From: an uncultured Chromatiales bacterium
GTDB taxonomy: Bacteria > Pseudomonadota > Gammaproteobacteria > Poriferisulfidales > Poriferisulfidaceae
Direction: 5' to 3'
NCBI GenBank assembly: GCA_964526195.1
Contig: CAZGIH010000020.1
Coordinates: 12,803-76,802, forward strand
Length of the DNA: 64,000 nucleotides
The position numbers and the translations under genes are program-made. Positions 20,768 through 64,000 of this stretch are shown one piece after another (position 1 is the first letter of the stretch; the number at the start of each line of letters is the position of its first letter). Under the pieces are notes generated by a model. The model saw nothing but the letters and a program-made list of their open reading frames with translations. It did not search any database and had not been told where the DNA came from.

Positions 20768-20773
20768 AGCAAC

Positions 20774-21217: not shown

Positions 21218-21337
21218 ACTACTTTTCCGACTTCAAAAAACTAGAATCATTCAGATGGCTTGGCTGGAAACCGCCTTTATGGGCATTTGCCGCTCGGCAT
21301 GCTCGGTCGCACTTGGCAAGTTATCCATACAATCCCT

Positions 21338-21347
21338 CGCCTGATGG
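21338..21347. repeat. Right copy of the 10-bp direct repeat CGCCTGATGG
   Basis: Exact match to 20124-20133; lies where high GC resumes, upstream of sppA. Confidence 0.5.
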
Positions 21348-21394
21348 CCGACCCCGAGAGTCCAGTACAATCGGCAATCTAGAGGAAAGCCGCC

Positions 21395-22318
21395 ATGGAT
21401 GAAAAAGAATCCGCTCTCGTCGTTGCGGTCCGCGAACTGACCGCCGAGACCCGCCGTGCCCGACGTTGGCGAACCGCGTTCGCCACGATTCCGTTTCTTA
21501 TCCTGCTGCTGATCCTGCTCGCGATGCTCGGAGGAGAGTCCTCGTTGCCGAGGCAGGATGCGCACACTGCCCGGATCGACGTGTTCGGCCCGATCGTGCC
21601 CCAGGCCCCGGCAAGTGCGGAATTCATCAACCAGTCGCTGCGCGAGGCATTCGAGGAAGAACAGGCAAAAGGGGTGGTGTTGCGCATCAACAGCCCCGGC
21701 GGATCGCCCGTCCAGGCGGATCGCATTAGTTCGGAGATCCAGAGGCTGAAGGCGGAATACCCGGAAAAGAAAATCTATGCGGTGGTCGAGGACCTGTGCG
21801 CGTCTGCCGCGTACTACATTGCTGTCGAGGCAGACGAGATCTACGTCAACGGTTCCAGCCTGGTCGGCTCGATCGGTGTGATCGCCAGCGGGTTCGGTTT
21901 CGCCGAACTGATCGAAGAGTGGGGCATCGAGCGGCGCGTAACGGCTTCCGGGCGGCATAAGGCGATGCTCGATCCGTTTCTGCCGCAGGATCCGGAGGCT
22001 GAGGCACATCTTCAGAATCTGGTGGATCGGATCCACCAACAGTTCGAGAACGCTGTCAAGGATGCCCGGGGAGAGCGTTTGACGGCCTCGGACGAAGAGG
22101 TGTTCGACGGGCGGATCTGGACCGGCGACCAGGCGCAGGAGATGGGGCTGGTGGACGGATTTTCGGATGTTGCGCAGGTTGCGCGCGACCAGGTCGGGGC
22201 CGAATCAGTGGTGAATTACACCTATGAGCCGGATTTCCTGGAGCGCGTGGCGGACCGGGTTGGTGCCCGGCTGGCCCAGATGGCAGAATCTTGGTTGCGC
22301 AGCCCGGTGCGGTTCTAG
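21395..22318 (+). CDS. sppA: Signal peptide peptidase SppA (36K type, S49 family)
   Basis: 307 aa; N-terminal membrane anchor; LRINSPGGS active-site Ser motif; RBS GAGGAAAG. Confidence 0.9.
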   Translation: MDEKESALVVAVRELTAETRRARRWRTAFATIPFLILLLILLAMLGGESSLPRQDAHTARIDVFGPIVPQAPASAEFINQSLREAFEEEQAKGVVLRINSPGGSPVQADRISSEIQRLKAEYPEKKIYAVVEDLCASAAYYIAVEADEIYVNGSSLVGSIGVIASGFGFAELIEEWGIERRVTASGRHKAMLDPFLPQDPEAEAHLQNLVDRIHQQFENAVKDARGERLTASDEEVFDGRIWTGDQAQEMGLVDGFSDVAQVARDQVGAESVVNYTYEPDFLERVADRVGARLAQMAESWLRSPVRF

Positions 22319-35111: not shown

Positions 35112-35968
35112 GTCGGGCCCTGGAAGTGGAGCAACAGCAGCCAGAACCCTGAACTGGCCAGCAATAACCCGGTTATCGTTCGGAATAGCCGCGCAGGGCT
35201 TGGAAGGGCCTTTTCGACGATCACGAAAAGCGCGATAGCCGCGACCCACAGCATGTTCATCATGCCGACGGCGAACAGGACCAGCATCAGCGCCCAGCAG
35301 CACCCGATGCAATACAGTCCGTGTTCAAAAGACATCTGCAGGGCGCCAGCCCGGCCGTCTTTCCAGCGGGCAAGCAGGAACTGCATGGGTGTTCGGCACA
35401 GGGTGAGGCAGACATCTTTCCATGGCGTCCACTGGTACAGGCCCGCCACGATCAGCAAAATGCCGCTGAACAACTGGCTTCGACTGTCCATCATGGGGTC
35501 GAGCAGCCCCCATTCGTGCAGGGGCCACTGCACGACCGAGATCACTGCGGAAAACGCGGCCCAAGAGGCGAGATAACCGACCAGAAAGATCATCCAGGGG
35601 ACGATTTTCAAGGTCTGCCGGCTCCGGTTCCGTTGTACGACCCGGTACATCCGCAGCATCGGCACGGCACTGGGCGTCATCATCGCGACCATCATGATCG
35701 ACCACATGGCGAACAGCATCCAGAAGTCGTATCCGCTCCAGCCGCCGACTCCGGCGGGCGGAGGCATCCACGCGATAGAGGGCCCGCCCCGCATCATGTC
35801 GCGCATCATCCATTCCATGTACAGCATCCAGCCCCACCCGCTGGCGGTGACGGCGATGACGGCGCCGATGAGGGTCCAGCGTTCAGCCGTCGGCAGGGGC
35901 GCGAATTCAGGAGTGGAGGCGGTGGCAGGCATGAGCGAAGCTCCCGCGGCCATTTTAACAGGTGGCAT
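35108..35968 (-). CDS. DUF2182-family polytopic membrane protein (predicted metal-binding)
   Basis: Multiple TM helices; HGLYCIGCCW motif; start codon ambiguous. Confidence 0.6.
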   Translation of the reverse strand: MPPVKMAAGASLMPATASTPEFAPLPTAERWTLIGAVIAVTASGWGWMLYMEWMMRDMMRGGPSIAWMPPPAGVGGWSGYDFWMLFAMWSIMMVAMMTPSAVPMLRMYRVVQRNRSRQTLKIVPWMIFLVGYLASWAAFSAVISVVQWPLHEWGLLDPMMDSRSQLFSGILLIVAGLYQWTPWKDVCLTLCRTPMQFLLARWKDGRAGALQMSFEHGLYCIGCCWALMLVLFAVGMMNMLWVAAIALFVIVEKALPSPARLFRTITGLLLASSGFWLLLLHFQGPT

Positions 35969-35997
35969 ATGTTGGAAGATGGGGATATAGTGGCCTA

Positions 35998-36963
35998 ATG
36001 AAAGCGGTAAATCGAGACAAGCCGGACCAATGGAAAGAAGACATTATCCGGTCAGTCGACATGTACAACAAGTGGTTTATCAGATTTGCGCCAAAAGCGT
36101 ATCGGGATGTTCGAGAGCAGACAGCCGAGGATGTCAAAAAGATGTTAAAAGCGACGGGCAATTTCAGAAAAATTGATGTAGCATTGCTCAAGGCATTTCC
36201 TGCTGTGTTGCCGACACTTCGGATGACCACTTCTCCACCGCTTGCAATAGATCGCTTGGTAGGACTCTCGGGCGCTTCAGCCAACCTTGTCAAAGTGATG
36301 GAAAAACAAGGCAAGCTTCCCTCTCGGATGTCACCGAGGGAATTGGATGCCAACCTTAGGAAAATCAGCAAAACGATCCAGAAAATGATTGATCCGGACA
36401 TTTTTGGCTGGTTGAAGAACGACAGAAAACCATCTCGACAGGACTTGTACCGGGCCGCGACAATTGTGGCTGACCGGTTATGCGGTGCTGTTGCAAACCC
36501 GATTATTCGCAATGCTCAGGAAAGAAGACAGCTTGCTACCATCGGGAAGTGGCTAAAGAATCGTGGCTATTTGAAGATTTCACCAGGAGAGGGAGCAAAA
36601 TATGATGAAATGCAGCCGGGAACATATTCGTTCCGACTGAATGTGCCAGCCGAGCAGGATCAAACTGGTAAATCAGTTAATATTCCTATGGATGTTGCCG
36701 TGATGCCTAAAAATGCGAAAGTGAGGAATTTGCCGCTTCTCATAGAGGCAAAATCTGCGGGTGACTTTACAAATGTCAACAAGCGCCGAAAGGAAGAAGC
36801 CACAAAAATGAGTCAATTGCGGCGAACCTATGGCAACAACGTGCGGTTTATTTTGTTTCTATGTGGATATTTCGACAGTGGCTATCTCGGCTATGAAGCA
36901 GCAGAAGGTATCGACTGGGTGTGGGAGCACCGTGTCGATGATCTCGAAAAATTTGGGATTTAG
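35998..36963 (+). CDS. Putative type II restriction endonuclease (PD-(D/E)xK), partner of the downstream methyltransferase
   Basis: IPMDVAVMPKNAKVRNLPLLIEAK gives a D...EAK nuclease motif. Its TAG stop abuts the methyltransferase ATG. About 47% GC against about 65% for the host. An alternative GTG start lies at 35962. Confidence 0.55.
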   Translation: MKAVNRDKPDQWKEDIIRSVDMYNKWFIRFAPKAYRDVREQTAEDVKKMLKATGNFRKIDVALLKAFPAVLPTLRMTTSPPLAIDRLVGLSGASANLVKVMEKQGKLPSRMSPRELDANLRKISKTIQKMIDPDIFGWLKNDRKPSRQDLYRAATIVADRLCGAVANPIIRNAQERRQLATIGKWLKNRGYLKISPGEGAKYDEMQPGTYSFRLNVPAEQDQTGKSVNIPMDVAVMPKNAKVRNLPLLIEAKSAGDFTNVNKRRKEEATKMSQLRRTYGNNVRFILFLCGYFDSGYLGYEAAEGIDWVWEHRVDDLEKFGI

Positions 36964-38550
36964 ATGGCTAGAAGTGAAATTGCGACGCTGGAGAAGCATC
37001 GTTTGATGCTTCAGGGGCAACTGGACTCAAAAAAGCATCAAGTTGAACGGAATCGGATGGGGCAATTCGCCACGCCTCCAGAATTGGCAGTGGACATTCT
37101 CCGTTATGCTGAAACCCATAGCGGGATCAACGAAAGAGTCCGTTTCCTTGACCCAAGCTTGGGAACCGGGTCGTTTTATTCAGCTTTGCTCAAAGTGTTT
37201 CCACAAAACCGCATTGATTCTGCTGTAGGCTACGAAATCGATTCCCATTATGGAATTCCTGCGGCAAATTTGTGGGAAAAGACAGGCTTGGATGTCCGTT
37301 TGAGTGATTTTACGCGGGCTGAAGCGCCACCAGATTCTGAAAAGTTTAACCTGCTTGTTTGTAACCCACCTTACGTTCGGCACCATCATATTGACAGTGG
37401 AGAAAAACAGCGCCTGAAGGCCTGTTTGCAGAAAGCGTGCAGCATGCGGCTCAGTGGATTGGCCGGATTGTACTGTTATTTTCTTGGGTTAAGCCATAAG
37501 TGGCTGGCCGAGGGAGGGCTTGCGGGCTGGTTGGTGCCAAGCGAATTTATGGATGTGAATTATGGTGCTGCAGTAAGGAATTACCTGCTAAATAACGTGA
37601 CGCTGCTGCATCTGCATCGATTTGATCCAGACGATGTGCAGTTTGAAGACGCCTTGGTGTCTTCGGTTGTGGTCTGGTTCCGCAAAGCGAAACCGCCGCT
37701 AGAACACCACGTCAGGTTCACATACGGTGGATCGCTTGGCAGCCCAAGGCTGGAACGTTTGGTGCCCGCCGAGACGCTGTGTCGTAGCTCTAAGTGGACA
37801 GGCTATCCGGCAAAAGAGGACGGTGATAAAGCAAATGTGCCAGTTTTGGGTGATTTCTTCAGCATTAAGCGGGGACTGGTGACCGGGGGCAACCGGTATT
37901 TCATCTTGACACTTGAGGAAATCAAGTACCGTGGATTACCTCGAGAAGCATTTCGGCCCATATTGCCGAGCCCGCGTTATTTGCGAGAGAACGAAGTAGT
38001 AGCCGACGGGGATGGAAACCCGGTGCTGGGCCGTCGTTTATTCTTGCTTGATTGCCGACTGGGAGAGGCGCAGATAAGGAAGAAATATCCAGCCTTGTGG
38101 AAATATCTTGAAGAAGGGGAAGCACTGGGTATAGCCAAACGCTACCTCTGTCGGCATCGGACACCTTGGTATACACAGGAAGAACGGCCGCCAGCGCCAT
38201 TCGTATGCACTTACCTTGGAAGAAAGGGAACAAAAAACGGGCGGCCGTTTCGCTTCATACTGAACCACTCTCGGGCGACTGCCGCAAATGTCTACCTCAT
38301 GCTCTACCCTAAAGGACCGATTGCCCGAGCCTTAGAGGAAGATCCGGACTTGAAAAAGAAACTCTGGAAGTTTCTCAATGCAATTCGTCCCCAGACAATG
38401 CTGGATGAGGGACGAGTCTATGGTGGGGGGTTGCATAAGCTTGAGCCAAGAGAATTGAGTAATGTACCGGTTGCGGAATTTGCGGAACTATTGCCGGAAC
38501 CAGCACGATTGCAGTCCGAAAAGCAAGGAGAATTATTTGTGGCAGTTTGA
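36964..38550 (+). CDS. Gamma-class N6-adenine DNA methyltransferase (Eco57I/TaqI-like) with C-terminal target-recognition domain
   Basis: 528 aa. Motif I FLDPSLGTGSF precedes motif IV LLVCNPPYVRHH, the gamma-class order. The low-GC composition is shared with the upstream nuclease. Confidence 0.85.
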   Translation: MARSEIATLEKHRLMLQGQLDSKKHQVERNRMGQFATPPELAVDILRYAETHSGINERVRFLDPSLGTGSFYSALLKVFPQNRIDSAVGYEIDSHYGIPAANLWEKTGLDVRLSDFTRAEAPPDSEKFNLLVCNPPYVRHHHIDSGEKQRLKACLQKACSMRLSGLAGLYCYFLGLSHKWLAEGGLAGWLVPSEFMDVNYGAAVRNYLLNNVTLLHLHRFDPDDVQFEDALVSSVVVWFRKAKPPLEHHVRFTYGGSLGSPRLERLVPAETLCRSSKWTGYPAKEDGDKANVPVLGDFFSIKRGLVTGGNRYFILTLEEIKYRGLPREAFRPILPSPRYLRENEVVADGDGNPVLGRRLFLLDCRLGEAQIRKKYPALWKYLEEGEALGIAKRYLCRHRTPWYTQEERPPAPFVCTYLGRKGTKNGRPFRFILNHSRATAANVYLMLYPKGPIARALEEDPDLKKKLWKFLNAIRPQTMLDEGRVYGGGLHKLEPRELSNVPVAEFAELLPEPARLQSEKQGELFVAV

Positions 38551-51645: not shown

Positions 51646-54249
51646 TCAATCATCATCCGCGGGAGAATCCAGTTTCTGCAATTCATAAATCAGGTCCAGA
51701 GCCTCCTTCGGCGACAGCTGGTCGGGCTTCACCTGTCGGAGACGTTCCAGGGCGGCCGGGATGGATGGAGGATCGGAAGGTGGCACGAACAGGTCTTTTT
51801 GCGGATTGCTGCGCGCCCAACGCTGAGTGCTGTCATCCTCGAGTTCCAGCAGGTATGCCTGGGCCCGTTCCAGCACCGGCGCAGGAATGCCCGCGAGACG
51901 TGCGACCTGCAGGCCGTAGCTTTGGCTGGCAGGTCCTTCCTTGACGGCGTGCAGGAAGACGATTTTCTGGCCATGCATCGTGGCGTCCAGGTGAAGGTTG
52001 ACGATCCCGGGATGGATTTCGGCCAGCTGGGTCAGCTCGAAGTAGTGGGTGGAGAAAAGGGTGAATGCCCGATTTCGGGTGGCCAGGTATTCGGCGCAGC
52101 CCAGTGCCAGTGCCATCCCGTCGAAAGTGCTGGTGCCGCGACCGATCTCGTCCATCAGCACCAGACTGTATTCGGAGGCGTGGTGCAGGATGTTGGCGGC
52201 TTCCGTCATCTCGACCATGAACGTGGAACGACCCGAAGTCAGGTCGTCGGAGGCCCCGATTCGGGTGAAGATGCGGTCGATGGGGCCAATCCTGGCCTGC
52301 TTGGCCGGCACGTGGCTGCCGATGCAGGCCATCAGCACGATCAGTGCGGTCTGCCTCATATAGGTGGATTTGCCGCCCATGTTCGGACCGGTGACGAGGA
52401 GCAGGCGGCGTTGCTCGGAGAGCAGCGTGTCGTTCGGCACGAATGGTTCGTTCCAGGTCAGCTCGATTACCGGGTGGCGACCGGCTTCGATCTCGACGCC
52501 GGGTTCGTCGACCAGTTCGGGGCAGCAGTAGTGGTGTGCCTTGGCCTGCTCGGCGAAGCTGCAGAGCACGTCCAGTTCGGACAGCGCATCTGCACATCGC
52601 TTGAAGTGGTTCAGGTGTGGCGTCAGGCTTTCCAAGAGATCTTGGTAGACCTGTTTTTCCCGCTCCAGCGCCCGGCTGCGCGCGCTCAGAACGCGGTCCT
52701 CGAATTCCTTCAGCTCCGATGTCAGGTAACGCTCGTAGTTCTTGAGCGTCTGCCGCCGCCGGTAGTGATCGGGCACCCGCGCGGCTTGGCTGCGCGGGAC
52801 CTCGATGTAGTAGCCGTGAACCCGGTTGTAGGCGACTTTGAGCTGGGCGATGCCGGTACTCTCCCGTTCGGTTGCTTCCATCTCCAAAAGAAAATCGTCG
52901 GCTCCGCGCGACAGTTCGCGTAGCTCATCCAGCTCGGGATCGAATCCTGCCGCAATGGCGCCGCCCTCGCGAATGGTCGGAGGGGGATTTTCCGCGAGCG
53001 CTGAAGCCAGATGTGCAGCCAGTTCCGGGTCCGATTGCAGATGGGCACGATAGGAGTCGAATTCTGCCGCGTCGATATCCTCCAGCAGGCGGCGCAGGTC
53101 TGGCAGGCGCTGCAGGGTTTGGGCCAGGCCGCACAAGTCCCGAGGGGAAGCGGTATGCAGGGCAAGGCGGGCGATGACGCGCTCGATGTCGGAGACTTTC
53201 CTCAACTGTTCGCGAATCGGGGCGCGGTGCGTGTTGTCCAACAGGTGAGAAACGATTTGGTGGCGTGTCGCCAGTGTTTCCCGGTCGCGAAGGGGAGATT
53301 GGATCCATCGACCGAGACAACGGTGGCCCATGGCCGTGACGGTTTTGTCCAATACACCCAGCAAGCTGTGGCGGGAATCGCCGGAGATAGTCTGCTCCAG
53401 CTCGAGATTGCGTCGGCTGGTGGCATCTAGGTAGATATGAGTATCGCGCCGTTCCCTTTGCAGGCTCGTAATGTGTGGCAGGGCCGCCCGTTGTGTCTCT
53501 TGGGCGTAGTAGAGCAGGGCTCCGGCGGCTCCGGTGGCGGAGGGCGCGTCTTGGCAGTCGAAGGCAGACAGGTCATAAACCCCGAGTTGCTGGCACAAGA
53601 GCCGGGAAGCGGTTTCGGCATCAAAATGCCAGTCCGAAAGAGGCTGCCAGTGCGTGTCTTCCCAGTCCGGAGGGGTGTTCGATTCCGGGTACAGGATTTC
53701 CGCTGGACGGAGACGTTCCAGTTCCGCGTACAGGTCTTCGATGGATGGGAGATCCATCACGTTGAAGCGGCCCGAGCTCAGGTTCAGGCTGGCCAGCCCG
53801 ATCGGATCCCCCGGCCACAGTGCAAGCAGCAGGGCGTCGCGCCCGGCGTCCAGCAGTTCATCCTCGATCAGGGTTCCGGGTGTGACGATGCGCGAAATCT
53901 GGCGTTCCATCGGCCCCCGGCCGGGCGGGCTGTCACCGACCTGCTCGCAAACCACCGCGGATTCTCCGAGGTCGACGAGTTTTGCGAGATAGGAATCAAG
54001 CGAAACCACCGGGATGCCCGCCATCGGGATAGGCTGGCCCTTGGAGCGTCCGCGCTCGGTCAGTACGATATCCAGCAATTCGGAGCCGCGCTTGGCGTCC
54101 TCGAAGAACAACTCGTAGAAGTCTCCCATTCTGTAGAGCAGCAGGTGCTGGGGGTATTGCGCCTTGAACTCAAGGTACTGGCGCATGCTGGGAGTGTGCT
54201 GCTGCTGTGGCGAGGGTGACGTCAACAGTGGAGCCGGTTGCAGTGCCAT
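51646..54249 (-). CDS. mutS: DNA mismatch repair protein MutS
   Basis: 867 aa; [28 protein letters not shown]-terminus; Walker [10 protein letters not shown]. Confidence 0.97.
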
Positions 54250-54349
54250 CCGGCTATTTTGTCAAATTTCTAAAATCCCCTGAAACGGCTGCCGGAAGGA
54301 GCCCGCGACGGAGCAGATGGTTGCAGGGAACTCGGGTCGAAAAAGCCCT

Positions 54350-55384
54350 TTACTCAGTTCCCGAATGCTTGGGTTTACGGGCCAAGAAGAAAAACGCCGG
54401 GGTAAAGAGACCGGATTCGCCTCCCGCGACCAGTGCGTCCGCTCCCCTGTTCAGCATTGTGCTGACCATGGTGGAGCCCTTCGGAATGATCCGCAGCGTC
54501 TCCCCGACTCTTAAGGTCAAATTGGTCAGGGCGCGCCCGATGGGCGTGCGAGGAATGCTCGCGAGACTGAGGTCGCGACCCTGCAGGGCGCGATACCAGG
54601 GCATACCCGGATCCGCTTCAGGGGCGAGGTCGCGGGCTTCCAAAAACTCGAACCCGGCCGCACTCAATGCGGGACCGATTTCAGACGTGACGGCGATATC
54701 CGGTAGCCCGTTCCCTTTCTCGATGTCTTTCTTGATCCGAAGGTGCTCGGCATTCTCCGGATCGAAGTCCTCGGTGAGACACCACTCGTAACCCGCGAAG
54801 CAGGCTCCCGGGCACAGGATGCGGAAGACCTCCCGGAACGCTGCGGTCTTGTCCGGCGCATGGGGCATGGACTCGATCGCGATGGCGGCGTCGTAGGAGT
54901 TGTCGTCCTCGGGAATCTGCATGAAGTCGCCGTGGATGAAGCGGCACAACGACTGGATGTCTTGGCTTTGTGCTTCGGCGCGCCTGATCTGGTAGGCGTT
55001 GTTGTTAAGCCCGACGAAACTGGCCCCGGAGTAACGGGCCAGCGTGCGCATTGGTCCGCCGATCCCGCAACCCAAGTCGATAACCTGCATCCCGGGTTTC
55101 AGGGACAGTTGGTCGGCTAGGAAATGCTCGTGCCTGAGCAGCGACTCCTTGAAGCTTTCGCCGCGGAGCCGGGGCGCGAAGTGAAAGGACTGGCCCCAGC
55201 CAAATTCGTAGAAATCGGTCGCTAGGTCGTAGTAGTGATTGACGAGTGTCTGATAGTCCTCTTTCCTGTTCTCCAGGTCGTCGTCGTGGAGCCCGGTGTA
55301 TTGATCGACCGCTTGGGTTACTTCATCCGGAGTGAGGTCCGAAAAAGAACGGGAACTCGATTGCTTGGTGGAAGTGCTGCTCAT
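54350..55384 (-). CDS. Sterol C-24 methyltransferase (ERG6/SMT family), SAM-dependent
   Basis: Start at the internal Met (MSSTSTK...). YYDLATDFYEFGWGQSFHF matches the SMT region-I hallmark (YEYGWG..FHF). SAM motif VIDLGCGIGGP. About 344 aa. Confidence 0.85.
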   Translation of the reverse strand: MSSTSTKQSSSRSFSDLTPDEVTQAVDQYTGLHDDDLENRKEDYQTLVNHYYDLATDFYEFGWGQSFHFAPRLRGESFKESLLRHEHFLADQLSLKPGMQVIDLGCGIGGPMRTLARYSGASFVGLNNNAYQIRRAEAQSQDIQSLCRFIHGDFMQIPEDDNSYDAAIAIESMPHAPDKTAAFREVFRILCPGACFAGYEWCLTEDFDPENAEHLRIKKDIEKGNGLPDIAVTSEIGPALSAAGFEFLEARDLAPEADPGMPWYRALQGRDLSLASIPRTPIGRALTNLTLRVGETLRIIPKGSTMVSTMLNRGADALVAGGESGLFTPAFFFLARKPKHSGTE

Positions 55385-55413
55385 TCGATTATCCTGCCAG
55401 TTCGCGTTCTTCT

Positions 55414-58400
55414 TCAAGAAGGAGCAGGCGCGTTGGGCTGCTCTTCCAAAGCCGCTGCCGCCAAAGGCACCGCGTCGCTCGCAATTGCGCCGGTGGCAAG
55501 GGAATCGGCGGTTGCCAGTTCCAGCCGGGCCCGGCGCCGCTGCTCGTAGAGGCCGAGGGCGCGCAGGGGGAAATACTGCCGATACAGGACGTAGTCCAGC
55601 AGGGCCGTACGGAAAAAGACTCCGGCCATGTCTTGCTTGGGCCATGCGCCATCCGCATCCTGGGTGTTGAGCAGGAACCGGACGCCCTGCGAGATCGCGG
55701 CCCAGTTGGGGTCCTCCGCCTCAAGGAGCGCAATCAATGCCCATGCGGTCTGGATGACCTGGCTTTCATCGTGCGCAATGTACTGGCCGGTGAAGCAACC
55801 GCTGTGGTGCTCACCCCATCCCCCGTCTCCGCGCTGACGGTCCAGCAACCACCGGCAGGCCAAGCGTAGCGCCGTATCACCCGGACGGGCTCCGGCCGCA
55901 AGCAGGCCCCTGATCCCGAAGGAAGTGCCGTAGATGAACTGAACTCCCCATACGCCGCGCCACGACCCATCGCTTGCCTGGGTTCGGCGAAGCCAGGCGC
56001 CGGCTCGCGACATGGCATCCGTCACTGCCTGGTCCGTGATGTCTGAAAAGTGCTTCTTGCAGGCGGCGAATGCCGCGAGGCAAGAAGCGGTGCACTCGAC
56101 ATAGGAATGTTCAGTCATCGACTCGCCGAACATTTCGGCTGGATTCAGCCATTCGAGCCCGATTACGGAACGCTGTGCTTCATAGCTGCCAAAGCCGCCA
56201 TCGCGGTTCTGACCTCGCAGCATGAACTGGATCGCATCCTTGAGCATGGCCGTGTTCGTCGTCCCGCGGTGGACGGCGATAATCCCGAGCACCGCTTCCG
56301 CGGTGCAGTCGGTGACTGGCCAGCCATGCCACTGTCCGGCAAAGCACCAGCCACCCTTGGGGTCGTTTCGAAAAGCCTCACGAAATCCTTCGAAACTGGT
56401 CTTGATTTGTTGCGTTTCCAGGAAATCGGCTCCACGCTGGAGGGAATTTTGAACTTCAGGGGCCAGATCGAGTCCGGACATTGTGTCCAATGCCTGCAGG
56501 GCGAAGCCGGTATCCCACGAAATGCTTCTCGCCCCGGTGACTCGTGCCCCGTATTCCTCGTCTTCCCAGATCCAGTCGTCCGACTTCGCGAGTGCCTGGC
56601 GACTGTCGGGATCGTTTGGGTCGCGCAGCCATAAGGCCAAGATGTTGAGGAGCCCGCTGACCGGGGAGATACTCGTGTGATTGGTCGTTCGAAGTTCCCA
56701 TTGGATGCGCTCGGTGATCGCGTCCATGCATCGAGCACGCAGGTATTGACTATGGAATCGTTCAAACAATTGCGAAAACCCGTACCCGATCCGGAGCCAT
56801 ACACTGGGCCGCGCATGGAGGTCGGCGCTTCGCAGGCGATTGCGGCCCGCGGAAAAGCCGACATTGGCAAAGCCCTCGGGGTACAGTTCTTCTCGCAGTG
56901 ACGCGATCAAAGGCGTGACGGGTGCCTGAAACCGATGTGAGTAGACGGCCGCCATCGCCATGTAGATGAGCCGGGTATGGCAATACCAGTTGGAAGGGTG
57001 CAGCGGAATCCAACGCGGCAGACTCCACAGTTCTGGCAGGATGGCGTTGATTCCGCGCCAGTCGTATAGATTGAGGAGCGCCAGCCAGAATTTCCCCCAG
57101 CTCGGAATGCCGAGAACTCCTTCGGTTTGCAGGAATTCCTGGGCAGGTTTAAGCAGCGGGTCATCCCGCTCGATGCCGAGCAGTCTTGCCGCGACGTAAA
57201 CCAGCGTGGTAACAAACAAGTTGGGGGGCGGGTACTCGTGCAGGCCCCATGCGCCTCCTTCTAGGCGAGTCTGTTCGAAAGACCGCAGCACGCGTCGGCG
57301 CCGATCGGGATCGAGCGACTGCCCCATGACGTAGTGCAGCAGTACGTACTGCGCGGTGAGCATGGGGCACCAGACCATCTCGCCTTCCCAGGCGCCATCC
57401 CCACCCTGGAGACTCAGCAGGCGCTCGCTCGCGCTCTTCAACGCCGGACCAGCATCAGGCGATTCGACCGTCCATGGGCGGGCAGGTTGAGAGTCGTTGG
57501 TCTTCGACGGGATGGAGACCAGGAATGTGCGGGACCAGGTGTCCCGAATTTGCTCGTCCTCTCCTTCGCCCGTGCTTCTCACCCGATGCAACATCCGGGC
57601 ACCCCGCAGCAGCCATTTGATTCGGCCCGAGAGTGAATTAAAGGTGTCTCGGGCACGTCGCCAGGCAAGTTTGTCGAGAGATCGCGGCATTTCTCCGGCA
57701 ACCGCCCGGGCCATCGTCGTAAAAAATGCAGAACTCAGGTGAATGACCGATGTGTCTTCGCAGGCGAGTAAACGCATGGTCCGGTCGCGCATCGTAGAAC
57801 TTGCCCGCCAGCCTCGGTAGGCTGCATGCCGGAGAGCCGCCACCTCGGTCCGATGATCAGCAAAGACCTCGTAGAGTCCTATGGCAAGGAATTCCGGGGC
57901 CCGGATCGCCCGGAAGCGCTTCTTGGTGAAGTCGCGAAAGTCCCCGTTTTCGGCGAGTGCAAGTGCATCACCGAAACCAAGGGTGATTCCGACCGCCGAC
58001 ATGGGGTGGTAGTGCCCGGCCGCATCGCCGATCAGTACTCGATGCGGGCTCCCGTAGCTAACGCGCGGCCTTAGTTTATTGCTGGCAGTGCGAAACTGCC
58101 CCGCCCGCAGCGCTTCAACAAATGCGGGCCTGACTGATTCCGGCAACCAACCGGTGTACGAGTCCAACAGGAACCCAATCCGATCCCGGGGTATCCAGCG
58201 ATCCGCCGGGACATCAACGACGATGCGCACGCCGCGCTCTCCGAGGCGGTACATGAGGATCGGCCCGGGTCCACCTCCCAACACGTACCCATAACCCTCC
58301 AACGGCAACGTCACGTCGTCGACCAGGACTCCCACCATCCACGAGCAAGTTTTGTGGTTCGTCGGCAAGCCCAGCGATCGACGCACGACCGAACCCCGGC

Positions 58401-58875
58401 CATCGGCGCCGACGATCCGCGTGGTCGCGACGGACTCATCGGTCCCGTTTCGAGTAAAAGTGATTCGTCCGTCTACAACCTCACGGACTTGTGCATTGAA
58501 AATGAAATCAATGCTCGATTCGTTCTCGATCGCTTCGTGCAGATGCGAGACGAGTGCCGAATGCTCACAGGCCAATCCGTGAGCACCGTCCGGATAGGGA
58601 AGTATGATCGGTTCCGAGTCGTCTTCCGGGTACACCACGAACCCATTGCCTGCACCGATGGGAGGCTGCGTGTCGATCCCGACCCCGATCTCGCGCAGGA
58701 TCTGCACGGCGGGGGGGTGCAGCCATTCTCCCGCCAGTCGCTTGGAAGCTTCGGGGCTCGCTTCGAGCAGGACAACCCGGGCACCTTTTCGCGCGTGGGC
58801 GAGCGCACACACACTGCCGACTGGTCCCCCGCCGACAATCGCGACGTCGTAATGCCGGGAGGGGGGGATGCTCAC
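55414..58875 (-). CDS. Single ORF encoding squalene monooxygenase (N-terminal) fused in frame to oxidosqualene cyclase (C-terminal)
   Basis: N-terminus: FAD Rossmann DVAIVGGGPVGS and the squalene-epoxidase motif GDAAGHYHPMSAVGITLGFGD. C-terminus: terpene-cyclase QW repeats (RDGGFGSY, GDGGWGEH) and the oxidosqualene-cyclase catalytic motif VTDCTAEA. No stop separates the two domains. Probable GTG start overlaps the CYP51 stop (GTGA). Confidence 0.85.
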   Translation of the reverse strand: MSIPPSRHYDVAIVGGGPVGSVCALAHARKGARVVLLEASPEASKRLAGEWLHPPAVQILREIGVGIDTQPPIGAGNGFVVYPEDDSEPIILPYPDGAHGLACEHSALVSHLHEAIENESSIDFIFNAQVREVVDGRITFTRNGTDESVATTRIVGADGRGSVVRRSLGLPTNHKTCSWMVGVLVDDVTLPLEGYGYVLGGGPGPILMYRLGERGVRIVVDVPADRWIPRDRIGFLLDSYTGWLPESVRPAFVEALRAGQFRTASNKLRPRVSYGSPHRVLIGDAAGHYHPMSAVGITLGFGDALALAENGDFRDFTKKRFRAIRAPEFLAIGLYEVFADHRTEVAALRHAAYRGWRASSTMRDRTMRLLACEDTSVIHLSSAFFTTMARAVAGEMPRSLDKLAWRRARDTFNSLSGRIKWLLRGARMLHRVRSTGEGEDEQIRDTWSRTFLVSIPSKTNDSQPARPWTVESPDAGPALKSASERLLSLQGGDGAWEGEMVWCPMLTAQYVLLHYVMGQSLDPDRRRRVLRSFEQTRLEGGAWGLHEYPPPNLFVTTLVYVAARLLGIERDDPLLKPAQEFLQTEGVLGIPSWGKFWLALLNLYDWRGINAILPELWSLPRWIPLHPSNWYCHTRLIYMAMAAVYSHRFQAPVTPLIASLREELYPEGFANVGFSAGRNRLRSADLHARPSVWLRIGYGFSQLFERFHSQYLRARCMDAITERIQWELRTTNHTSISPVSGLLNILALWLRDPNDPDSRQALAKSDDWIWEDEEYGARVTGARSISWDTGFALQALDTMSGLDLAPEVQNSLQRGADFLETQQIKTSFEGFREAFRNDPKGGWCFAGQWHGWPVTDCTAEAVLGIIAVHRGTTNTAMLKDAIQFMLRGQNRDGGFGSYEAQRSVIGLEWLNPAEMFGESMTEHSYVECTASCLAAFAACKKHFSDITDQAVTDAMSRAGAWLRRTQASDGSWRGVWGVQFIYGTSFGIRGLLAAGARPGDTALRLACRWLLDRQRGDGGWGEHHSGCFTGQYIAHDESQVIQTAWALIALLEAEDPNWAAISQGVRFLLNTQDADGAWPKQDMAGVFFRTALLDYVLYRQYFPLRALGLYEQRRRARLELATADSLATGAIASDAVPLAAAALEEQPNAPAPS

Positions 58876-60260
58876 TGGAAAATGCTGGCCTGTGGGCGGC
58901 GGCGGTAACGGACCCAGCAGGGTTCCCTGGGGCCTGTCACCCAACTGCCGTAATTCGGTTCGGGAAACTCGGTGATGGGCTCAAAATCGAAACAATCAAA
59001 CAGCACGGTCCAGATTGCTTTCAACTGCATGTAAGCAAAATGTTCACCGATGCATCGATGTTTGCCGCCGCCGAAACTGATCAAGGCGTAGTGGTGCTGT
59101 TTGCCCTCGGATGCAGGTGGAGCGAACCGGTCCGGATTGAAGCGGTTCGGATCGGCAAACAGGTGCGGCAACCGTTGAGAGACCGCCGGCGACACCATGG
59201 CCAGGGCGCCGGCCGGCACGACATGGTCCTTGTAGTGCAAGGGTCTGAGCACCTTGCGGATCAGCATGATCAACGGCGGGTGCATCCGCTCGCATTCACG
59301 GATGGCATGCTCCAGTATTACTTGGTGCCTGAGGTTCTCGTAGCTCACGGTTCCCGCCTCGCGGTAGGTGTCTTGCACCTCGTCTTTCACCCGCGCCAGG
59401 TATGACGGTGCCCTCATGAGTTCCAGAAGAGTCCAGGTTGCGAGCACTGCGCTGGTGTGCTGGCCCGCGAACAACACCGTCAGCAGGATTCCGGTAATCT
59501 CGTCGTCGCTCGGGGCGTGGCCATCCTTGTAGCGAGCATTCATGAGGGTCTGCATGAAATCGTCAGGCTGGGCTTCGGTCCGCCGGCGTTCCGCCATGAT
59601 CTGGCCGAAGAGTTTGGCGACTTTTCGCCGGGCCCGGTCGCGGCTCCGATGTGCCGGAATCGGGAGATAGGGAAAAAAGAACCCCAAGGTGTTGATGCCG
59701 TTTTGCAGTTCGTGGTAAGCCTCGGCGAATCCTGCGTCCAGCTGGGTCCGGACCTCTTCTCCAATGAGGCAGCGACTGGCGATTTTGACGGTGAGTTCGT
59801 TCATTGCGTGGGGCAGATCGACTTCCCCACGCTCGCCGAGGTCCTCGGCGAACTGCCAGGTTTCCTTGAACATGATGCGGGCGAACCGGCGCATCGCGGC
59901 TTCGTTGAGTGCCGGATACAAAAATCCCAATTGCTCGAGCATCAGTTCAGGCGTAGTGTCGTAAGCTACGCCGCGCCCGAAGATGGGCACCGTGAACTGG
60001 TAGACCTCTTTGGCGCTGAGTTGGTCTTCGGGTGCGTGGAAGTAGAAATCGTGAGCTTCGGGCCCGGTGAAGAGGAAGAACTCGCGCGGGCCGAGCCGGA
60101 ACCGGATGAGTTCGCCTTGCTCGCGCCAGCCGCGCTGCAGCATCGCGATCGGGTCTTTCTGGAAATCCAGCAGATGGCCGATCAGCGGCCACTTGCCCGC
60201 GATCTCGGGAATGGCCCGGGCCTCCTGCGGCGAAAGTGGGGTGGAACGTACGGTGGTCAT
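58872..60260 (-). CDS. Sterol 14-alpha demethylase (CYP51), stand-alone P450 without ferredoxin fusion
   Basis: Start at the internal Met (MTTVRST...); I-helix FAGQHTS; heme loop FGGGKHRCIGEHFA; about 463 aa. Confidence 0.88.
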   Translation of the reverse strand: MTTVRSTPLSPQEARAIPEIAGKWPLIGHLLDFQKDPIAMLQRGWREQGELIRFRLGPREFFLFTGPEAHDFYFHAPEDQLSAKEVYQFTVPIFGRGVAYDTTPELMLEQLGFLYPALNEAAMRRFARIMFKETWQFAEDLGERGEVDLPHAMNELTVKIASRCLIGEEVRTQLDAGFAEAYHELQNGINTLGFFFPYLPIPAHRSRDRARRKVAKLFGQIMAERRRTEAQPDDFMQTLMNARYKDGHAPSDDEITGILLTVLFAGQHTSAVLATWTLLELMRAPSYLARVKDEVQDTYREAGTVSYENLRHQVILEHAIRECERMHPPLIMLIRKVLRPLHYKDHVVPAGALAMVSPAVSQRLPHLFADPNRFNPDRFAPPASEGKQHHYALISFGGGKHRCIGEHFAYMQLKAIWTVLFDCFDFEPITEFPEPNYGSWVTGPREPCWVRYRRRPQASIFQ

Positions 60261-60274
60261 GTCGTCAGGTCGCC

Positions 60275-61381
60275 TCAATAGACGAACGGCAGCATCGCGA
60301 AACGCACTCGCTTCGTGTACCGCTCCCAGAGTTCGCCGTACTTGGCGCGGCAGCGGCGATCGTCGCGTCTTGAGCGATGCGACAACAGCCCCGCCAACCA
60401 CGCGGGCAACAGGTAAGGCACCCAGGATGCGAATCCGGTGGTCAGGGCGAACGAAAGGTAGATGCAGATCTCGCCGGTATAGTTGAGATGCCGCCCGATT
60501 CCCCAAAATCCGGAGACCAGCAGGTGCCCGTCCAGGGACTCGGCGGGTTTCCCCCAGATCGTGGCGTGAGAGTCACGCTTGAAACGGTGCTTCTGCCCGT
60601 TGGCGCCGCGGAAGACCCAGAAGCCGAAGACGAACAGCAGGGTGATTGCGACGGCAGCGACGGGGGGCAGGGGATCGGTTGCGTGAACCAGCCACCAGCC
60701 GGCGAGGCAATAGAAAAACGGGACCAGTACATAGTCTCCCCAAACCAGCATCCACCCGAAGCGTTCGCTGACGATGTCCCAGGTGTGGACCATTCCGTAT
60801 TCGAAGTGGAAGTAGTTGAGGACGTACAGGAAAGTGAAGGTCTGGTAAAGCATCATCGCCAAGGTCAACTCGCCGTAGGTTTCGTACTGCACGGCGGCGA
60901 ACGAGACGTTGAACAACGCGAGGCCGATGAGGGAAGGGCGGTAGCTGAAAAACTTCAAGTCCACCCCGAACCAGGTCGGATGGCCTTCCACGCCATAGAA
61001 GAAACCTTCCAATCCCTTCGGGGAATCGCCCTGGGTCCGGGTGCCTTGGTAGTACAGCAAGGCGGAAAAAGCAAACGCGAATATGTTCGCTACCACGAAC
61101 AGGGCGAGAAAGTGGGTATACAGCACCGAAAGAGAGAACCAACCGGAGACTTGGGCAAGTCCTCCCACGATCATGGTCAGCAGGAACAGGGCGAGGCCGT
61201 TGCTCCTGTAGATCCTTGATTTTCCATTGTAATCCGGTCCCGTAACCCGGCGTCCGGGCAACAGCATCGAACCCAGGAACAGGAAGCCGAAGAATGCCAG
61301 CATCATGGCTGCCGCGTCGAGCAGGGTGCTGCCGGACAGCGCAGTCAGCGAGAAGGGCAGGTCAGGCATAAGCGTTGCCAT
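60275..61381 (-). CDS. ERG4/ERG24-family sterol reductase (C-14 or C-24(28) reductase type)
   Basis: 368 aa polytopic membrane protein; family signature LLVSGFWGIGRHLNYTGE. Confidence 0.8.
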   Translation of the reverse strand: MATLMPDLPFSLTALSGSTLLDAAAMMLAFFGFLFLGSMLLPGRRVTGPDYNGKSRIYRSNGLALFLLTMIVGGLAQVSGWFSLSVLYTHFLALFVVANIFAFAFSALLYYQGTRTQGDSPKGLEGFFYGVEGHPTWFGVDLKFFSYRPSLIGLALFNVSFAAVQYETYGELTLAMMLYQTFTFLYVLNYFHFEYGMVHTWDIVSERFGWMLVWGDYVLVPFFYCLAGWWLVHATDPLPPVAAVAITLLFVFGFWVFRGANGQKHRFKRDSHATIWGKPAESLDGHLLVSGFWGIGRHLNYTGEICIYLSFALTTGFASWVPYLLPAWLAGLLSHRSRRDDRRCRAKYGELWERYTKRVRFAMLPFVY

Positions 61382-62459
61382 TCTCCGCTTTGCGTGTCAG
61401 GTATTCGCGCCACTTGCGCACGGTCACGTCCTGGAAAGCCTCCACCACGGGATTGAACTCGACGGTCGGGGCGTCCCAATGTTTCTCGTAACCCTCCTGT
61501 TCTCCTTCGAGTGCGTATTGATCCTGAGAAAGCAACGGGCCGATGAGGATGCGGTTCGAGATCTTTAGAACGAAGGTCATGGCGAAACGGGGAATGTGCA
61601 CCGGCAGCAAGGGTATCTTCAGCGACTTGAAGTAGAACAAAAAGAAGGTCCGGGTTGTCCGCTCGTCGATGGGCAGCACGAAAAGCCAGTGTTTGATCCA
61701 GTCATCGGTGTTCGACCACTGGTAAGGGTATTGGTAGCAGAGATCCATGTGATTGGTGTCGAGCCGTTTGTGGTCGACGAACAGCCCGGAGATACGCCCG
61801 CGTCCGACCTGCGTGTCGTAGGAGAGGTGCACATCATCACCGATAGTCTCGCAGCGGGTGAGGGCAGCGCCGACGAAAGGCCGGTATTGACGGTGCAGGT
61901 GGGCATGAGAGAAGTCGCTCACGTTGTCGATCACCATCGAGTGGTGGGCCAACCAGGTGAAAGTGAGCGGGACGCAGGCCCATCGGTCGGGTCCCTCGAG
62001 TTCAGGAATGTCCGGGATCTGCCGTGACTCCGCTTTCTCCGGATCCCCAGGGAACAACCAGACCAGGCCGTATCGGACCTTCACGGGATAGGATCGAATC
62101 GAGACATTCTGACAACTTTCTCCGAGGTGCTCGCGAGGCCCCCCGGCACGTTGCCCCCCTCCGTCGTATTGCCAGCCATGGTAGGCGCAGACGAGCCGGC
62201 AGCCCTCAACATGGCCGAGAGAAAGCTTGAGTTGGCGATGGGCGCAGCGATCCTCGACCGCATGGAACGAACCATCCTTTGCTCGGAACAATGCGATGGC
62301 GTGTTTCCAGAAAACAACCTCGGTCACGGTTCCCGGCTTGACGCGGCGTACTTCTTCGACCGCGTACCAATAATCCGGGTCCATGCCCGCGGCGCGCGCT
62401 TTCTGTCGCAAATTGCTGGCTTCATCGAAGCCAGGAGGCGGGCTTGTCATTGAGTCCAT
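61362..62459 (-). CDS. Rieske [2Fe-2S] non-heme iron oxygenase, SdmA-like (sterol C-4 demethylation type)
   Basis: 365 aa; Rieske box CAHRQLKLS...CAYHGW; C-terminal catalytic domain; paired with a 3beta-HSD-like gene. Confidence 0.7.
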   Translation of the reverse strand: MDSMTSPPPGFDEASNLRQKARAAGMDPDYWYAVEEVRRVKPGTVTEVVFWKHAIALFRAKDGSFHAVEDRCAHRQLKLSLGHVEGCRLVCAYHGWQYDGGGQRAGGPREHLGESCQNVSIRSYPVKVRYGLVWLFPGDPEKAESRQIPDIPELEGPDRWACVPLTFTWLAHHSMVIDNVSDFSHAHLHRQYRPFVGAALTRCETIGDDVHLSYDTQVGRGRISGLFVDHKRLDTNHMDLCYQYPYQWSNTDDWIKHWLFVLPIDERTTRTFFLFYFKSLKIPLLPVHIPRFAMTFVLKISNRILIGPLLSQDQYALEGEQEGYEKHWDAPTVEFNPVVEAFQDVTVRKWREYLTRKAENGNAYA

Positions 62460-62460
62460 T

Positions 62461-63648
62461 TCAGCCTCCGTCTGAAGTGATGGGTGTGCCTTGATCCGGC
62501 ATGAGTTCTTCTACTTGTCCTGTGCCGTCCATGCACGGGGGTTTCGCGTCCGGGTTCGTGATCGCCTTGCGCTGGTGGTAGTGAAAGGCGTAGGCTTCGT
62601 GAACCGCGGCGCGGATGCTGGTCGGACGATAACCGAGATCTTCTTTCGCCTTGCTGTTGTTGGCGTGGCGGCACTTTTGCAGCAGGCGAATGGCGCCGGG
62701 AGTGAAACGCTGAGGGAAACTTGGATGAAACCGGCTCAGGTAAAAACTGGCCACTTCTGAGAAAGCAAGCATTGCACGGACCGGAATCCGTCGGTTGGGT
62801 CGCGGGATGCCGGAGACTTCCTCGTACAGGTCGATGATGTCGGAGATGGTTTTGTATTCGGAACTGAAGATGTATTTCTCGCCTGTGCGCCCGCGGCCCA
62901 TGCACAACCGGTGTCCTTCAACAATGTCCCGTGCCGCGACGAACTCGAAGCCGCCATCGACGTAGGCATGGAGCTTGCCGTTTGTGTAATCGCACAAGGT
63001 TCTACCCAATCGTGAAGGGAAGAAATCGCTGCCCCCCACAACCGCGCAACACGTTGCGACGATGACATCCTGTCCGGCCGCCGCGGCGCGCCAGCACACC
63101 TGTTCGACGAGCGTCTTGCTGCGCTCGTAGGGCATCGTGCGTTCCATGGGATAGAACAGCATCGTCTCGTCGCTGGGGGCGGAGGGGTCATCCAGGTTGT
63201 ACCCGACCGCGCTGAAAGAGCCCGTCACGACCACCCGGCCGGCTTCCGTCTCCCGTGCCGCCTGCAGCATGTTGCGGGTGCCGAGAACGTTGCACTCGTA
63301 TATTTCCCGACGATGGGCGTGGTTTCCTTCGATGGTTGAAACCTTGGCCGCGCAGTGATAGACGCCTTGGCAGCCCTCGACCGCACGCCTGACGGAATTC
63401 AAGTCCCGCAGGTCGCCGAACACGCGTTCGACCTCAAGGCCTTCCAGCGCCTCGTTGTTCTCTTCGTGTCTTAGCAGCACCCGGACCCGGGTGCCTTCGT
63501 TGAGTAGCCGACGCACGAGATTGGCACCCACGTGCCCGGCCGCGCCGGTGACGAAAACGGGTGCAGCCGATGAATTGTCGGGTGTGCTCGATCCTGAAGT
63601 CATCTTGTGCCCTGATTCCGAAACTTTTTCATCCATGTTTGACGGCAT
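62461..63648 (-). CDS. NAD(P)-dependent 3beta-hydroxysteroid dehydrogenase/decarboxylase-family enzyme, SdmB/ERG26-like
   Basis: Extended-SDR motifs VFVTGAAGHVGANL and Y-E-R-S-K; an alternative start at Met16 lies at 63603. Confidence 0.72.
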   Translation of the reverse strand: MPSNMDEKVSESGHKMTSGSSTPDNSSAAPVFVTGAAGHVGANLVRRLLNEGTRVRVLLRHEENNEALEGLEVERVFGDLRDLNSVRRAVEGCQGVYHCAAKVSTIEGNHAHRREIYECNVLGTRNMLQAARETEAGRVVVTGSFSAVGYNLDDPSAPSDETMLFYPMERTMPYERSKTLVEQVCWRAAAAGQDVIVATCCAVVGGSDFFPSRLGRTLCDYTNGKLHAYVDGGFEFVAARDIVEGHRLCMGRGRTGEKYIFSSEYKTISDIIDLYEEVSGIPRPNRRIPVRAMLAFSEVASFYLSRFHPSFPQRFTPGAIRLLQKCRHANNSKAKEDLGYRPTSIRAAVHEAYAFHYHQRKAITNPDAKPPCMDGTGQVEELMPDQGTPITSDGG

Positions 63649-63925
63649 CGAGGGTACGCAGGCAGAACGCTCAACAACGGCCAGGATATGCCAGCGTCCG
63701 CCGCTTCATAGCCGCCTTGTTTCAAGCCAATCAAGCTACCGCAATCACCGATCTGCATCCAGCCATCCCTCGCAATATGACTGATGGCATAATTCTAACA
63801 AACTTCATAAAACTGAAGCGTCAAGGATTTTTGAGGCCGTTGCAGGCTTCCGTCAGGTGTCTTGACTATGCTGGAGTGTGTCTGGAAACGGATAGATGGT
63901 CGCGAAAGTCTGCAAGCCGCCTTCA

Positions 63926-64000
63926 CTTGGCAAGAGTGATGGCAAGAGTGATTACGACGCTGAGAATGGTGGTCATGACGCCTCCGCCGATGAGCAGGAA
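63926..64000 (-). CDS. C-terminal end of an unidentified hydrophobic protein, truncated by the window edge
   Basis: The frame is open to the window end and reads ...FLLIGGGVMTTILSVVITLAITLAK*. Confidence 0.25.

Follow-up and report, generated by a model that had tools for sequence, protein, structure and literature searches.

Demethylation of sterols at C-4 in bacteria has been assigned to the proteins SdmA and SdmB, which in Methylococcus capsulatus correspond to MCA1016 and MCA1017 (Lee et al. 2018, cited through PMC10202945 and PMC10942540). Lee et al. 2023 (PMC10202945) reported that the methanotroph SdmAB removes one methyl group, that SdmAB of Calothrix removes both, and that Enhygromyxa salina needs SdmA, SdmB and SdmC. 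Sponge symbionts were studied by Kelly et al. 2022 (PMC9531527), who reported 'clusters of steroid genes' with the core ERG24-CYP51-LSS in 115 of 537 genomes of Ircinia symbionts from 10 phyla, and found purifying selection and horizontal transfer of these clusters. The core is preceded by one gene annotated as 'dihydroflavonol-4-reductase' (DFR) and one labelled 'hypothetical protein', and these authors noted that SdmA and SdmB may lie hidden among the hypothetical proteins. Brown et al. 2023 (PMC10070321) explicitly labelled sdmA and sdmB in such clusters. The current analysis concerns a 64,000-nucleotide stretch of contig CAZGIH010000020.1 from an uncultured Chromatiales bacterium (hereafter the window), in which positions 60275-63648 encode an extended short-chain dehydrogenase/reductase (SDR), a Rieske oxygenase and an ERG4/ERG24-family sterol reductase. 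We propose that these three genes very probably open a six-gene operon for sterol synthesis, which employs the bacterial SdmA/SdmB type of C-4 demethylation and not the eukaryotic ERG25/26/27 enzymes.

In kind, the locus is an ordinary example of the sponge-symbiont steroid cluster published by Kelly et al. 2022 and Brown et al. 2023. In Supplementary Data 1 of the latter (PMC10070321), the Aplysina aerophoba scaffold JGIcombinedJ30088_10000835 carries the cluster as genes 16 to 9, and genes 16 to 11 are sdmB, sdmA, ERG24, ERG11, one gene matching both ERG1 and ERG7, and the sterol methyltransferase gene SMT. The sdmA of this scaffold shares 47% identity with MCA1016, and its sdmB shares 45% with MCA1017, 52% with the Calothrix sdmB and 51-52% with sdmB and sdmC of E. 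salina. The same gene identifier is given for ERG1 and ERG7 in that supplement, a fusion that is left without discussion, and Kelly et al. (PMC9531527) named LSS only.

In the window, three intact open reading frames (ORFs) on the minus strand fill the interval 60275-63648, practically unspaced. The order of transcription is sdmB, sdmA and erg24, followed by cyp51, a fused squalene monooxygenase::oxidosqualene cyclase gene (sqmo::osc) and the sterol methyltransferase gene smt, beyond which lies mutS (Table 1). A sequence-only reading that preceded this analysis had called an ERG4/ERG24 reductase, a Rieske oxygenase and an extended SDR, and Pfam recovered all three (E-values of 1.2e-70, 2.3e-20 and 3.9e-34, respectively); it had placed the SDR after the Rieske enzyme, the reverse of the actual order SDR, Rieske, reductase. 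The genes are separated by a 1-nt gap between sdmB and sdmA, an overlap of 8-20 nt between sdmA and erg24 (8 nt if erg24 begins at Met5), a cyp51 start 14 nt past the erg24 stop, a GTG start of the fusion gene that overlaps the cyp51 stop (GTGA), and an smt start 30 nt past the stop of the fusion gene. This spacing points to one operon, and the six genes from sdmB to smt, which occupy ~9.3 kb, are tightly packed and probably co-transcribed. Promoter and terminator scans gave a result no better than shuffled sequence, an Rfam scan of 54000-64000 returned no match, and no meaningful direct or inverted repeats and no integrase were seen flanking the cassette. The presence of the genes, their order, motifs and family assignments, and the conservation of the block are the observed part of the reading that we propose.

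Table 1. Genes of the sterol operon in the window, and accessory reductase genes at related loci.
Feature	Location	Strand	Remarks
sdmB-like extended SDR ORF	62461..63648	minus	395 aa; probable start Met16 at 63603, giving 380 aa
sdmA-like Rieske [2Fe-2S]/mononuclear-iron monooxygenase (putative C-4 methyl oxidase)	61362..62459	minus	365 aa
ERG4/ERG24-family sterol reductase, putative delta-14	60275..61381	minus	ORF of 368 aa; probable start Met5 at 61369, giving 364 aa
CYP51 sterol 14alpha-demethylase	58872..60260	minus	462 aa, without ferredoxin domain; matches structure chains
Squalene monooxygenase::oxidosqualene cyclase fusion	55414..58875	minus	1153 aa from GTG; Pfam and NCBIfam
Sterol C-24 methyltransferase (smt)	54350..55384	minus	344 aa when begun at Met88 of its ORF; closes the operon
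Accessory ERG4/ERG24 paralogues	L034 18569-19633; L047 18587-19651; L075 7094-8203		Lie beside the cassette of some Alphaproteobacteria and of 'Ca. Palauibacter'

The Rieske protein has intact metal-binding motifs and belongs most closely to SdmA. The CxH...CxxH motif of the earlier reading was located at CAH 72-74 and CAYH 91-94, and the four [2Fe-2S] ligands that it provides (C72/H74 and C91/H94) are invariant in 30 homologues. The mononuclear-iron motif is DFSHAHLH at residues 182-189, with the spacing D182-x2-H185-x3-H189; in alignment, H185 and H189 fall on the iron-binding histidines of DdmC (GHA...VHR, a DxxH...H motif), and D313, also invariant in 30 homologues, is the putative carboxylate that completes the iron site. 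The best NCBIfam family is SdmA (NF052579, 4beta-methylsterol monooxygenase), which matches at profile positions 4-349 of 351 with 405.9 bits, and the next-best family reaches 38.7 bits only. Pfam assigns Rieske (72.8 bits) and VanA_C (46.2 bits, E-value 7.7e-12) domains. Amongst solved structures the best relatives are DdmC (71.5 bits), SxtT/SxtDIOX and NdmA, which are O-/N-demethylases and hydroxylases matching with 58-72 bits; DdmC, SxtT and NdmA lie at 66-72 bits. An AlphaFold model built from 30 close homologues had a mean predicted local distance difference test (pLDDT) score of 43, too poor for a fold search, and an exact-sequence look-up of the protein gave no identical record.

These assignments bear on whether the locus makes or degrades steroids. 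The sequence-only reading had considered that the Rieske enzyme might group with KshA-type hydroxylases and that the locus might be catabolic, i.e. dedicated to the uptake and degradation of host steroids. A Rieske oxygenase and a dehydrogenase can occur together in steroid degradation, and a separate KshA_C-type Rieske gene is present in a related Nitrospira locus; against this stand the absence of a KshA_C domain from the Pfam scan of the window protein, its weak match to KshA (chains at 32-33 bits, compared with 71.5 bits for DdmC), an operon with enzymes to epoxidise squalene, to cyclise it, to demethylate at C-14 and to methylate at C-24, and the housekeeping nature of the remaining window genes. 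By its domains and structural relatives the Rieske protein is of the VanA/DdmC type and not of the KshA type. No steroid-degradation, hopanoid or bst genes were found in the scanned ORFs of the window (Pfam scans covered 46 of ~50 gene-like ORFs), and this, together with the four biosynthetic steps encoded in the operon, marks the locus as biosynthetic. We therefore rejected the catabolic reading with its KshA-type hydroxylase, to which we assign hardly any probability.

The SDR retains an intact dinucleotide-binding fold and S...YxxxK arrangement, with TGS at residue 142 and the two motifs that had been noted earlier, GAAGHVG at residues 35-41 and YxxxK at 174-178 (YERSK). It matches Pfam Epimerase with 118.6 bits, and its best NCBIfam family is SdmB (NF052578), with 298.7 bits over profile positions 4-322 of 328. 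The match to Pfam 3Beta_HSD (PF01073; 73.7 bits) covers profile positions 2-162 of 280 only, which is the Rossmann half, so that the earlier label '3beta-HSD-like' is apt at the level of the superfamily and fails beyond it. Met16 is the most likely start, because conservation among homologues begins only there. The best solved relative is 3wj7, followed by cinnamoyl-CoA and dihydroflavonol reductases, a likeness that explains the 'DFR' annotation of Kelly et al.; the comparison shows that the two genes they listed under 'DFR' and 'hypothetical protein' correspond to sdmB and sdmA, travelling with the cassette across phyla.

Relatives of the SDR outside the cassette were drawn from 50%-identity cluster representatives, from which Nannocystaceae and Polyangium names were recovered. 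The closest of these representatives include natural fusions of the SDR with squalene synthase (amongst them RefSeq proteins of cultured Polyangium), with HMG-CoA reductase (HMGR) and squalene synthase (SQS), with polyprenyl synthetase and squalene synthase, and with a P450 fragment. The fusions with squalene synthase, HMGR and polyprenyl synthetase tie the SDR clade independently to triterpenoid synthesis. The fused SdmB-like SDR domains in P0243, P0244, P0246, P0247, P0249, P0263 and P0270, all from outside the window, are 41-55% identical, and the HMGR+SQS+SDR fusion is 1253 aa long and occurs on at least 13 contigs. We infer that in C-4 demethylation of the bacterial type the SDR of the window serves as the NAD(P)-dependent decarboxylating dehydrogenase/3-ketoreductase. 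With SdmA and SdmB as the best families, each matched over its full length, and with biosynthetic neighbours, the SdmA/SdmB-like interpretation of the pair offered by the sequence-only reading, as distinct from ERG25/26/27, is sustained.

The third gene encodes a membrane protein whose Pfam match to ERG4_ERG24 (PF01222) reaches 238.9 bits against a cut-off of 27 bits. Its only two matches amongst solved structures are both chains named delta(14)-sterol reductase, namely MaSR1 (4quv; 253.8 bits, BLASTP identity 42.5% over 348 residues) and 9l5r (a chain of 592 residues; 135.1 bits). An AlphaFold model from 34 homologues (pLDDT 75, predicted template modelling score 0.81) has nine long predicted helices and a TM-score of 0.78 against 4quv. 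Query residue 28 aligns to MaSR1 chain residue 78. The C-terminal half, which holds the NADPH and catalytic site, is highly conserved, and its segments FRGANxQKHxF, WGIxRHxNY and HRxxRDxxxCxxKYGxxWxxY align with MaSR1. The length of 368 aa noted earlier is that of the ORF; the protein itself probably has 364 aa, since the called homologues have that length and Met5 is consequently the most likely start. When trimmed to the window ORF, all 79 cassette homologues measure 366-374 aa, and the short form is thus the norm of the clade. A homologue search with the reductase gave only proteins that were close, unnamed or labelled 'DUF1295'. The earlier pairing of CYP51 with an ERG24-type reductase is supported, as a true CYP51 is encoded directly downstream of this relative of the delta-14 reductase MaSR1. 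These relationships suggest that the protein is an ERG24-type delta-14 sterol reductase.

Several observations weigh against the proposed operon function, and the first group of these concerns the Sdm pair. The scores of the Rieske protein and of the SDR both lie under the NCBIfam equivalog cut-offs, which are 600 bits for NF052579 and for NF052578; the name of the NF052579 model suggests that it was built on Methylococcales sequences. Other SDR relatives from outside the methanotrophs likewise stay under the SdmB cut-off, and no 50%-identity representative reached it. Scores below 600 bits make the window proteins Sdm-type homologues outside the methanotroph equivalog. The second family of the SDR is the sister family HpnA with 233.6 bits, a lead of only 65 bits for SdmB. 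In a rough neighbour-joining tree the SDRs of the cassette form a tight clade, closest to Nannocystaceae proteins and separate from those representatives to which the methanotroph SdmB model gives its top scores. Furthermore, SdmA and SdmB of E. salina alone remove no methyl group and give only an aldehyde, as SdmC is needed in addition (PMC10202945), and the window contains no second SDR of the SdmC kind, nor a second Sdm or ERG24 paralogue. No redox partner (ferredoxin or ferredoxin reductase) for SdmA and CYP51 was found in the scanned ORFs of the window, and in the literature on the cassette the methyltransferases are the only enzymes for which we found assays.

The near score of HpnA, the sub-threshold Sdm scores, the position of the SDR nearer to Nannocystaceae proteins and the requirement of the E. 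salina pair for a third enzyme could all be accommodated if the SDR and the Rieske protein were an HpnA-like or tailoring pair, acting in ring or side-chain hydroxylation or in interconversion of 3-hydroxyl and 3-keto groups, or if the pair were insufficient without a third enzyme encoded elsewhere. This is, in our view, very unlikely. SdmA is the sole strong family of the Rieske protein and is matched over the full length, the two genes are adjacent as are those of MCA1016 and MCA1017, the SdmB homologues of the cassette are 52% identical to the Calothrix SdmB, which works with SdmA alone, and hopanoid genes are absent from the scanned ORFs of the window. C-4 demethylation by the SdmA/SdmB pair remains the preferred interpretation of the two genes.

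The second group of adverse observations concerns the reductase. It has no counterpart of the first ~50 residues, or first helix, of MaSR1. It also carries GHPT at the position of LNPR, a motif that we take to be a signature of the ERG4/ERG24 family; this motif is variable, and LNPR is retained in 1 of the 79 cassette homologues. The ERG4/ERG24 family comprises C-7, C-14 and C-24(28) reductases, which are inseparable by sequence alone, and on this point we agree with the caution of the earlier reading that the reduced bond is not proven by sequence. In three related loci a second ERG4/ERG24 paralogue, 31-33% identical to the window reductase, adjoins the cassette (Table 1). The cassette copy is closer to MaSR1 than the second copy in two of these loci. 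In L075 the cassette copy matches MaSR1 with 237 bits and the second copy with 140 bits, compared with 244 bits for the window copy; in L034 the two copies are about equal (212 and 208 bits), and the second copy of L047 reaches 216 bits. The comparison of paralogues therefore lends weak support, at most, to the view that the cassette copy is the delta-14 enzyme. The accessory paralogues are candidates for reductases of another double bond.

The window reductase could itself act on a different bond, reducing delta-24(28) in the manner of ERG4 or delta-7 in the manner of DHCR7, or giving delta-8(14) sterols, with the delta-14 step absent or encoded elsewhere. The breadth of the family, a methyltransferase at the end of the operon, the short nine-helix form without LNPR and the scores of 208-216 bits for the second paralogues of L034 and L047 would all be compatible with this. 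On the other side, 68 of 80 loci have the reductase gene directly upstream of cyp51, at least 15 of them without a nearby methyltransferase, the two structural matches are both chains named delta(14)-sterol reductase and include the 42.5% identical MaSR1, and extra ERG4/ERG24 copies occur only as accessories in few loci. We consider such an alternative specificity unlikely, though less so than the tailoring function discussed for the Sdm pair, and favour the delta-14 assignment for the reductase of the cassette.

The remaining genes of the operon are consistent with sterol synthesis from squalene. The top solved relatives of the CYP51 protein are all CYP51, the best being 6mcw from Methylococcus (345.6 bits, aligned over residues 10-450 of 551), and the alignment with the Methylococcus enzyme ends before the ferredoxin domain of the latter. 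The fusion protein has the Pfam domains FAD_binding_3 and SE at residues ~30-415 and SQHop_cyclase_N/C at residues 503-1134, matches the NCBIfam 2,3-oxidosqualene cyclase with 719.9 bits and contains the DCTAE motif. A single unbroken frame spans monooxygenase and cyclase in 70 of 78 related loci, and searches of the literature turned up no description of a natural bacterial fusion of the two. The methyltransferase contains Sterol_MT_C (75.1 bits) and methyltransferase domains.

We propose the following series of steps, in which the substrates, the order of the steps, the delta-14 regiospecificity and the removal of one or both methyl groups would follow the chemistry transferred from characterised homologues. 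Squalene would be epoxidised and cyclised to a lanosterol-type tetracycle by the fused squalene monooxygenase/oxidosqualene cyclase. CYP51 would then remove the 14alpha-methyl group to leave the 8,14-diene, and the ERG4/ERG24 membrane protein would reduce C14=C15 with NADPH. SdmA, with its Rieske [2Fe-2S] cluster and 2-His-1-carboxylate iron, would oxidise a C-4 methyl group to the alcohol, the aldehyde and the acid in three O2-dependent steps, drawing electrons from a reductase presumably encoded outside the scanned window genes. SdmB would oxidise the 3beta-hydroxyl, upon which decarboxylation would follow and the 3-ketone would be reduced back. The methyltransferase would finally alkylate C-24.

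Apart from the operon, the window contains housekeeping genes (dnaKJ, dapB, carAB, nusA-infB-truB, his, aro, cytochrome bc1, purMN and tldD/pmbA). A low-GC patch at 35962-38550 on the plus strand (0.49, compared with ~0.61) carries genes for a restriction endonuclease of the XamI type and a methylase of the Eco57I type and is likely an acquired restriction-modification island. A lone ATPase resembling a type IV secretion coupling protein (T4SS-DNA_transf/TrwB/TraG) is encoded at 4079-5638 on the plus strand, between dapB and carA. A further low-GC patch (0.51) lies at 20001-22000 and includes a 153-aa ORF (20306-20767) with an atypically low third-position GC of 0.48.

A bacterial scan with the Rieske protein, at one genome per species, found a relative in at least 539 genomes, and the best 80 loci were compared; homologues of the Rieske protein from the homologue search are 70-94% identical. 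Nearly all of the best 80 genomes are uncultured genome bins (metagenome-assembled genomes), and for several of them the title of the record or the name of the bin indicates a sponge. The lineages amongst these 80 are Gammaproteobacteria, including 'Ca. Porisulfidus' (84-96%), Nitrospirales, Binatia, Rhodospirillales/Defluviicoccus and other Alphaproteobacteria, Thermodesulfobacteriota, Opitutales, Vicinamibacteraceae, 'Ca. Palauibacter' and 'Ca. Poriferihabitaceae'. Of the 80 species genomes, 68 have the order sdmB-sdmA-erg24-cyp51-sqmo-osc colinear on one strand, and at least 15 loci without a methyltransferase inside 10 kb keep erg24 next to cyp51. Over its entire 9.2-9.5 kb the cassette has a nucleotide identity of 74-79% between phyla, with Gammaproteobacteria, Nitrospirales, Binatia, Thermodesulfobacteriota, Alphaproteobacteria and Opitutales among the lineages aligned, and of ~92% with the closest genomes, and its proteins are 57-97% identical to those of other phyla. 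The window is most similar to the 'Ca. Porisulfidus' genomes L005 and L006 (96-97% protein and ~92% nucleotide identity). The identity to other Gammaproteobacteria, 75-79%, is not above that to Nitrospirales and Binatia (78-80%), which fits horizontal spread of the cassette. In the closest, 'Ca. Porisulfidus'-like relatives the cassette lies between a cinA-recA-recX-alaS block and mutS, and in the window it likewise adjoins mutS.

The surroundings of the conserved genes vary. Many relatives have one to three methyltransferase copies, often on the opposite strand, whereas the window has one, on the same strand; in L001 and L007 a 514-aa FAD_binding_4 protein occupies the methyltransferase position instead. 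Just downstream of the cassette of Nitrospira sp. SB0662_bin_26 (L003/L013, 13864-14892), a second Rieske oxygenase with a KshA_C domain is encoded between two sterol methyltransferase genes, and it may be a sterol tailoring enzyme. Upstream of the Nitrospira cassettes (L002, 4599-6890; L003, 1-1394) lies an MMPL/Patched/sterol-sensing RND transporter gene, similar to transporters of sterols or hopanoids of the BstA/HpnN type, of which no counterpart was found in the window.

The cassette, its SdmAB assignment, its spread amongst sponge symbionts and the biomarker implications have already been published, and the present locus is a supporting example; it adds a clean, complete and apparently chromosomal cassette in a lineage near 'Ca. 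Porisulfidus'. Bacterial sterols that are C-4-demethylated and C-24-alkylated bear on sterane biomarkers such as 24-isopropylcholestane and on why sponge symbionts keep sterols. A bolder proposal, which we put forward tentatively and regard as possible but not the likelier outcome, is that the single SdmA/SdmB pair removes both C-4 methyl groups in the manner of Calothrix, so that with the methyltransferase a sulfur-oxidising gammaproteobacterial sponge symbiont would turn squalene into 'eukaryote-type' sterols that are 24-alkylated and fully 4-demethylated, and the short nine-helix reductase and the fusion protein would represent adaptations of a module that is compact and horizontally mobile. 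If true, removal of both methyl groups would bear on bacterial symbionts as a source of sponge sterane biomarkers. At ~9.3 kb and six genes, the cassette is small enough for heterologous expression as a whole.

Compared with the known systems, the locus shares most with the sponge-symbiont clusters of Kelly et al. and Brown et al., which have the same genes in the same order; in the window the host is a gammaproteobacterium near 'Ca. Porisulfidus'. SdmA and SdmB of Methylococcus resemble the window pair as an adjacent Rieske and SDR pair (the adjacency of MCA1016 and MCA1017 is deduced from the consecutive locus tags), the window proteins match these families from end to end, and both pairs would be of the O2-dependent C-4 demethylation type that is not homologous to ERG25/26/27. 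The differences are that cassette homologues are only ~44-47% identical to the Methylococcus proteins (identities published in PMC10070321), that the methanotroph pair removes one methyl group and sits with the bstABC transporter genes whereas the window pair heads an operon with cyclase, CYP51 and methyltransferase genes, and that the Methylococcus CYP51 has a ferredoxin fusion which the window CYP51 lacks. MaSR1 (PDB 4quv), the crystallised delta-14 sterol reductase from Methylomicrobium alcaliphilum, has a C-terminal half that is strongly conserved in the window reductase, but is longer by ~50 N-terminal residues and has LNPR where the window protein has GHPT. The eukaryotic ERG25 (SMO), ERG26 (3beta-HSD/decarboxylase) and ERG27 (3-ketoreductase) carry out the same chemistry overall, i.e. 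methyl oxidation, decarboxylation via a 3-ketone and reduction of the ketone (PMC10202945), but are not homologous, as the window oxygenase is a Rieske protein and not a membrane di-iron hydroxylase, and one DFR/HpnA-like SDR would replace two enzymes. In Calothrix sp. NIES-4105, which has SdmAB, and in Enhygromyxa salina, which has SdmA/B/C, the Sdm genes lie within a sterol cluster together with genes for cyclisation and C-14 demethylation, as they do in the window, and it is to the enzymes of these two bacteria that the SdmB homologues of the cassette are most similar (50-53%, data of PMC10070321).

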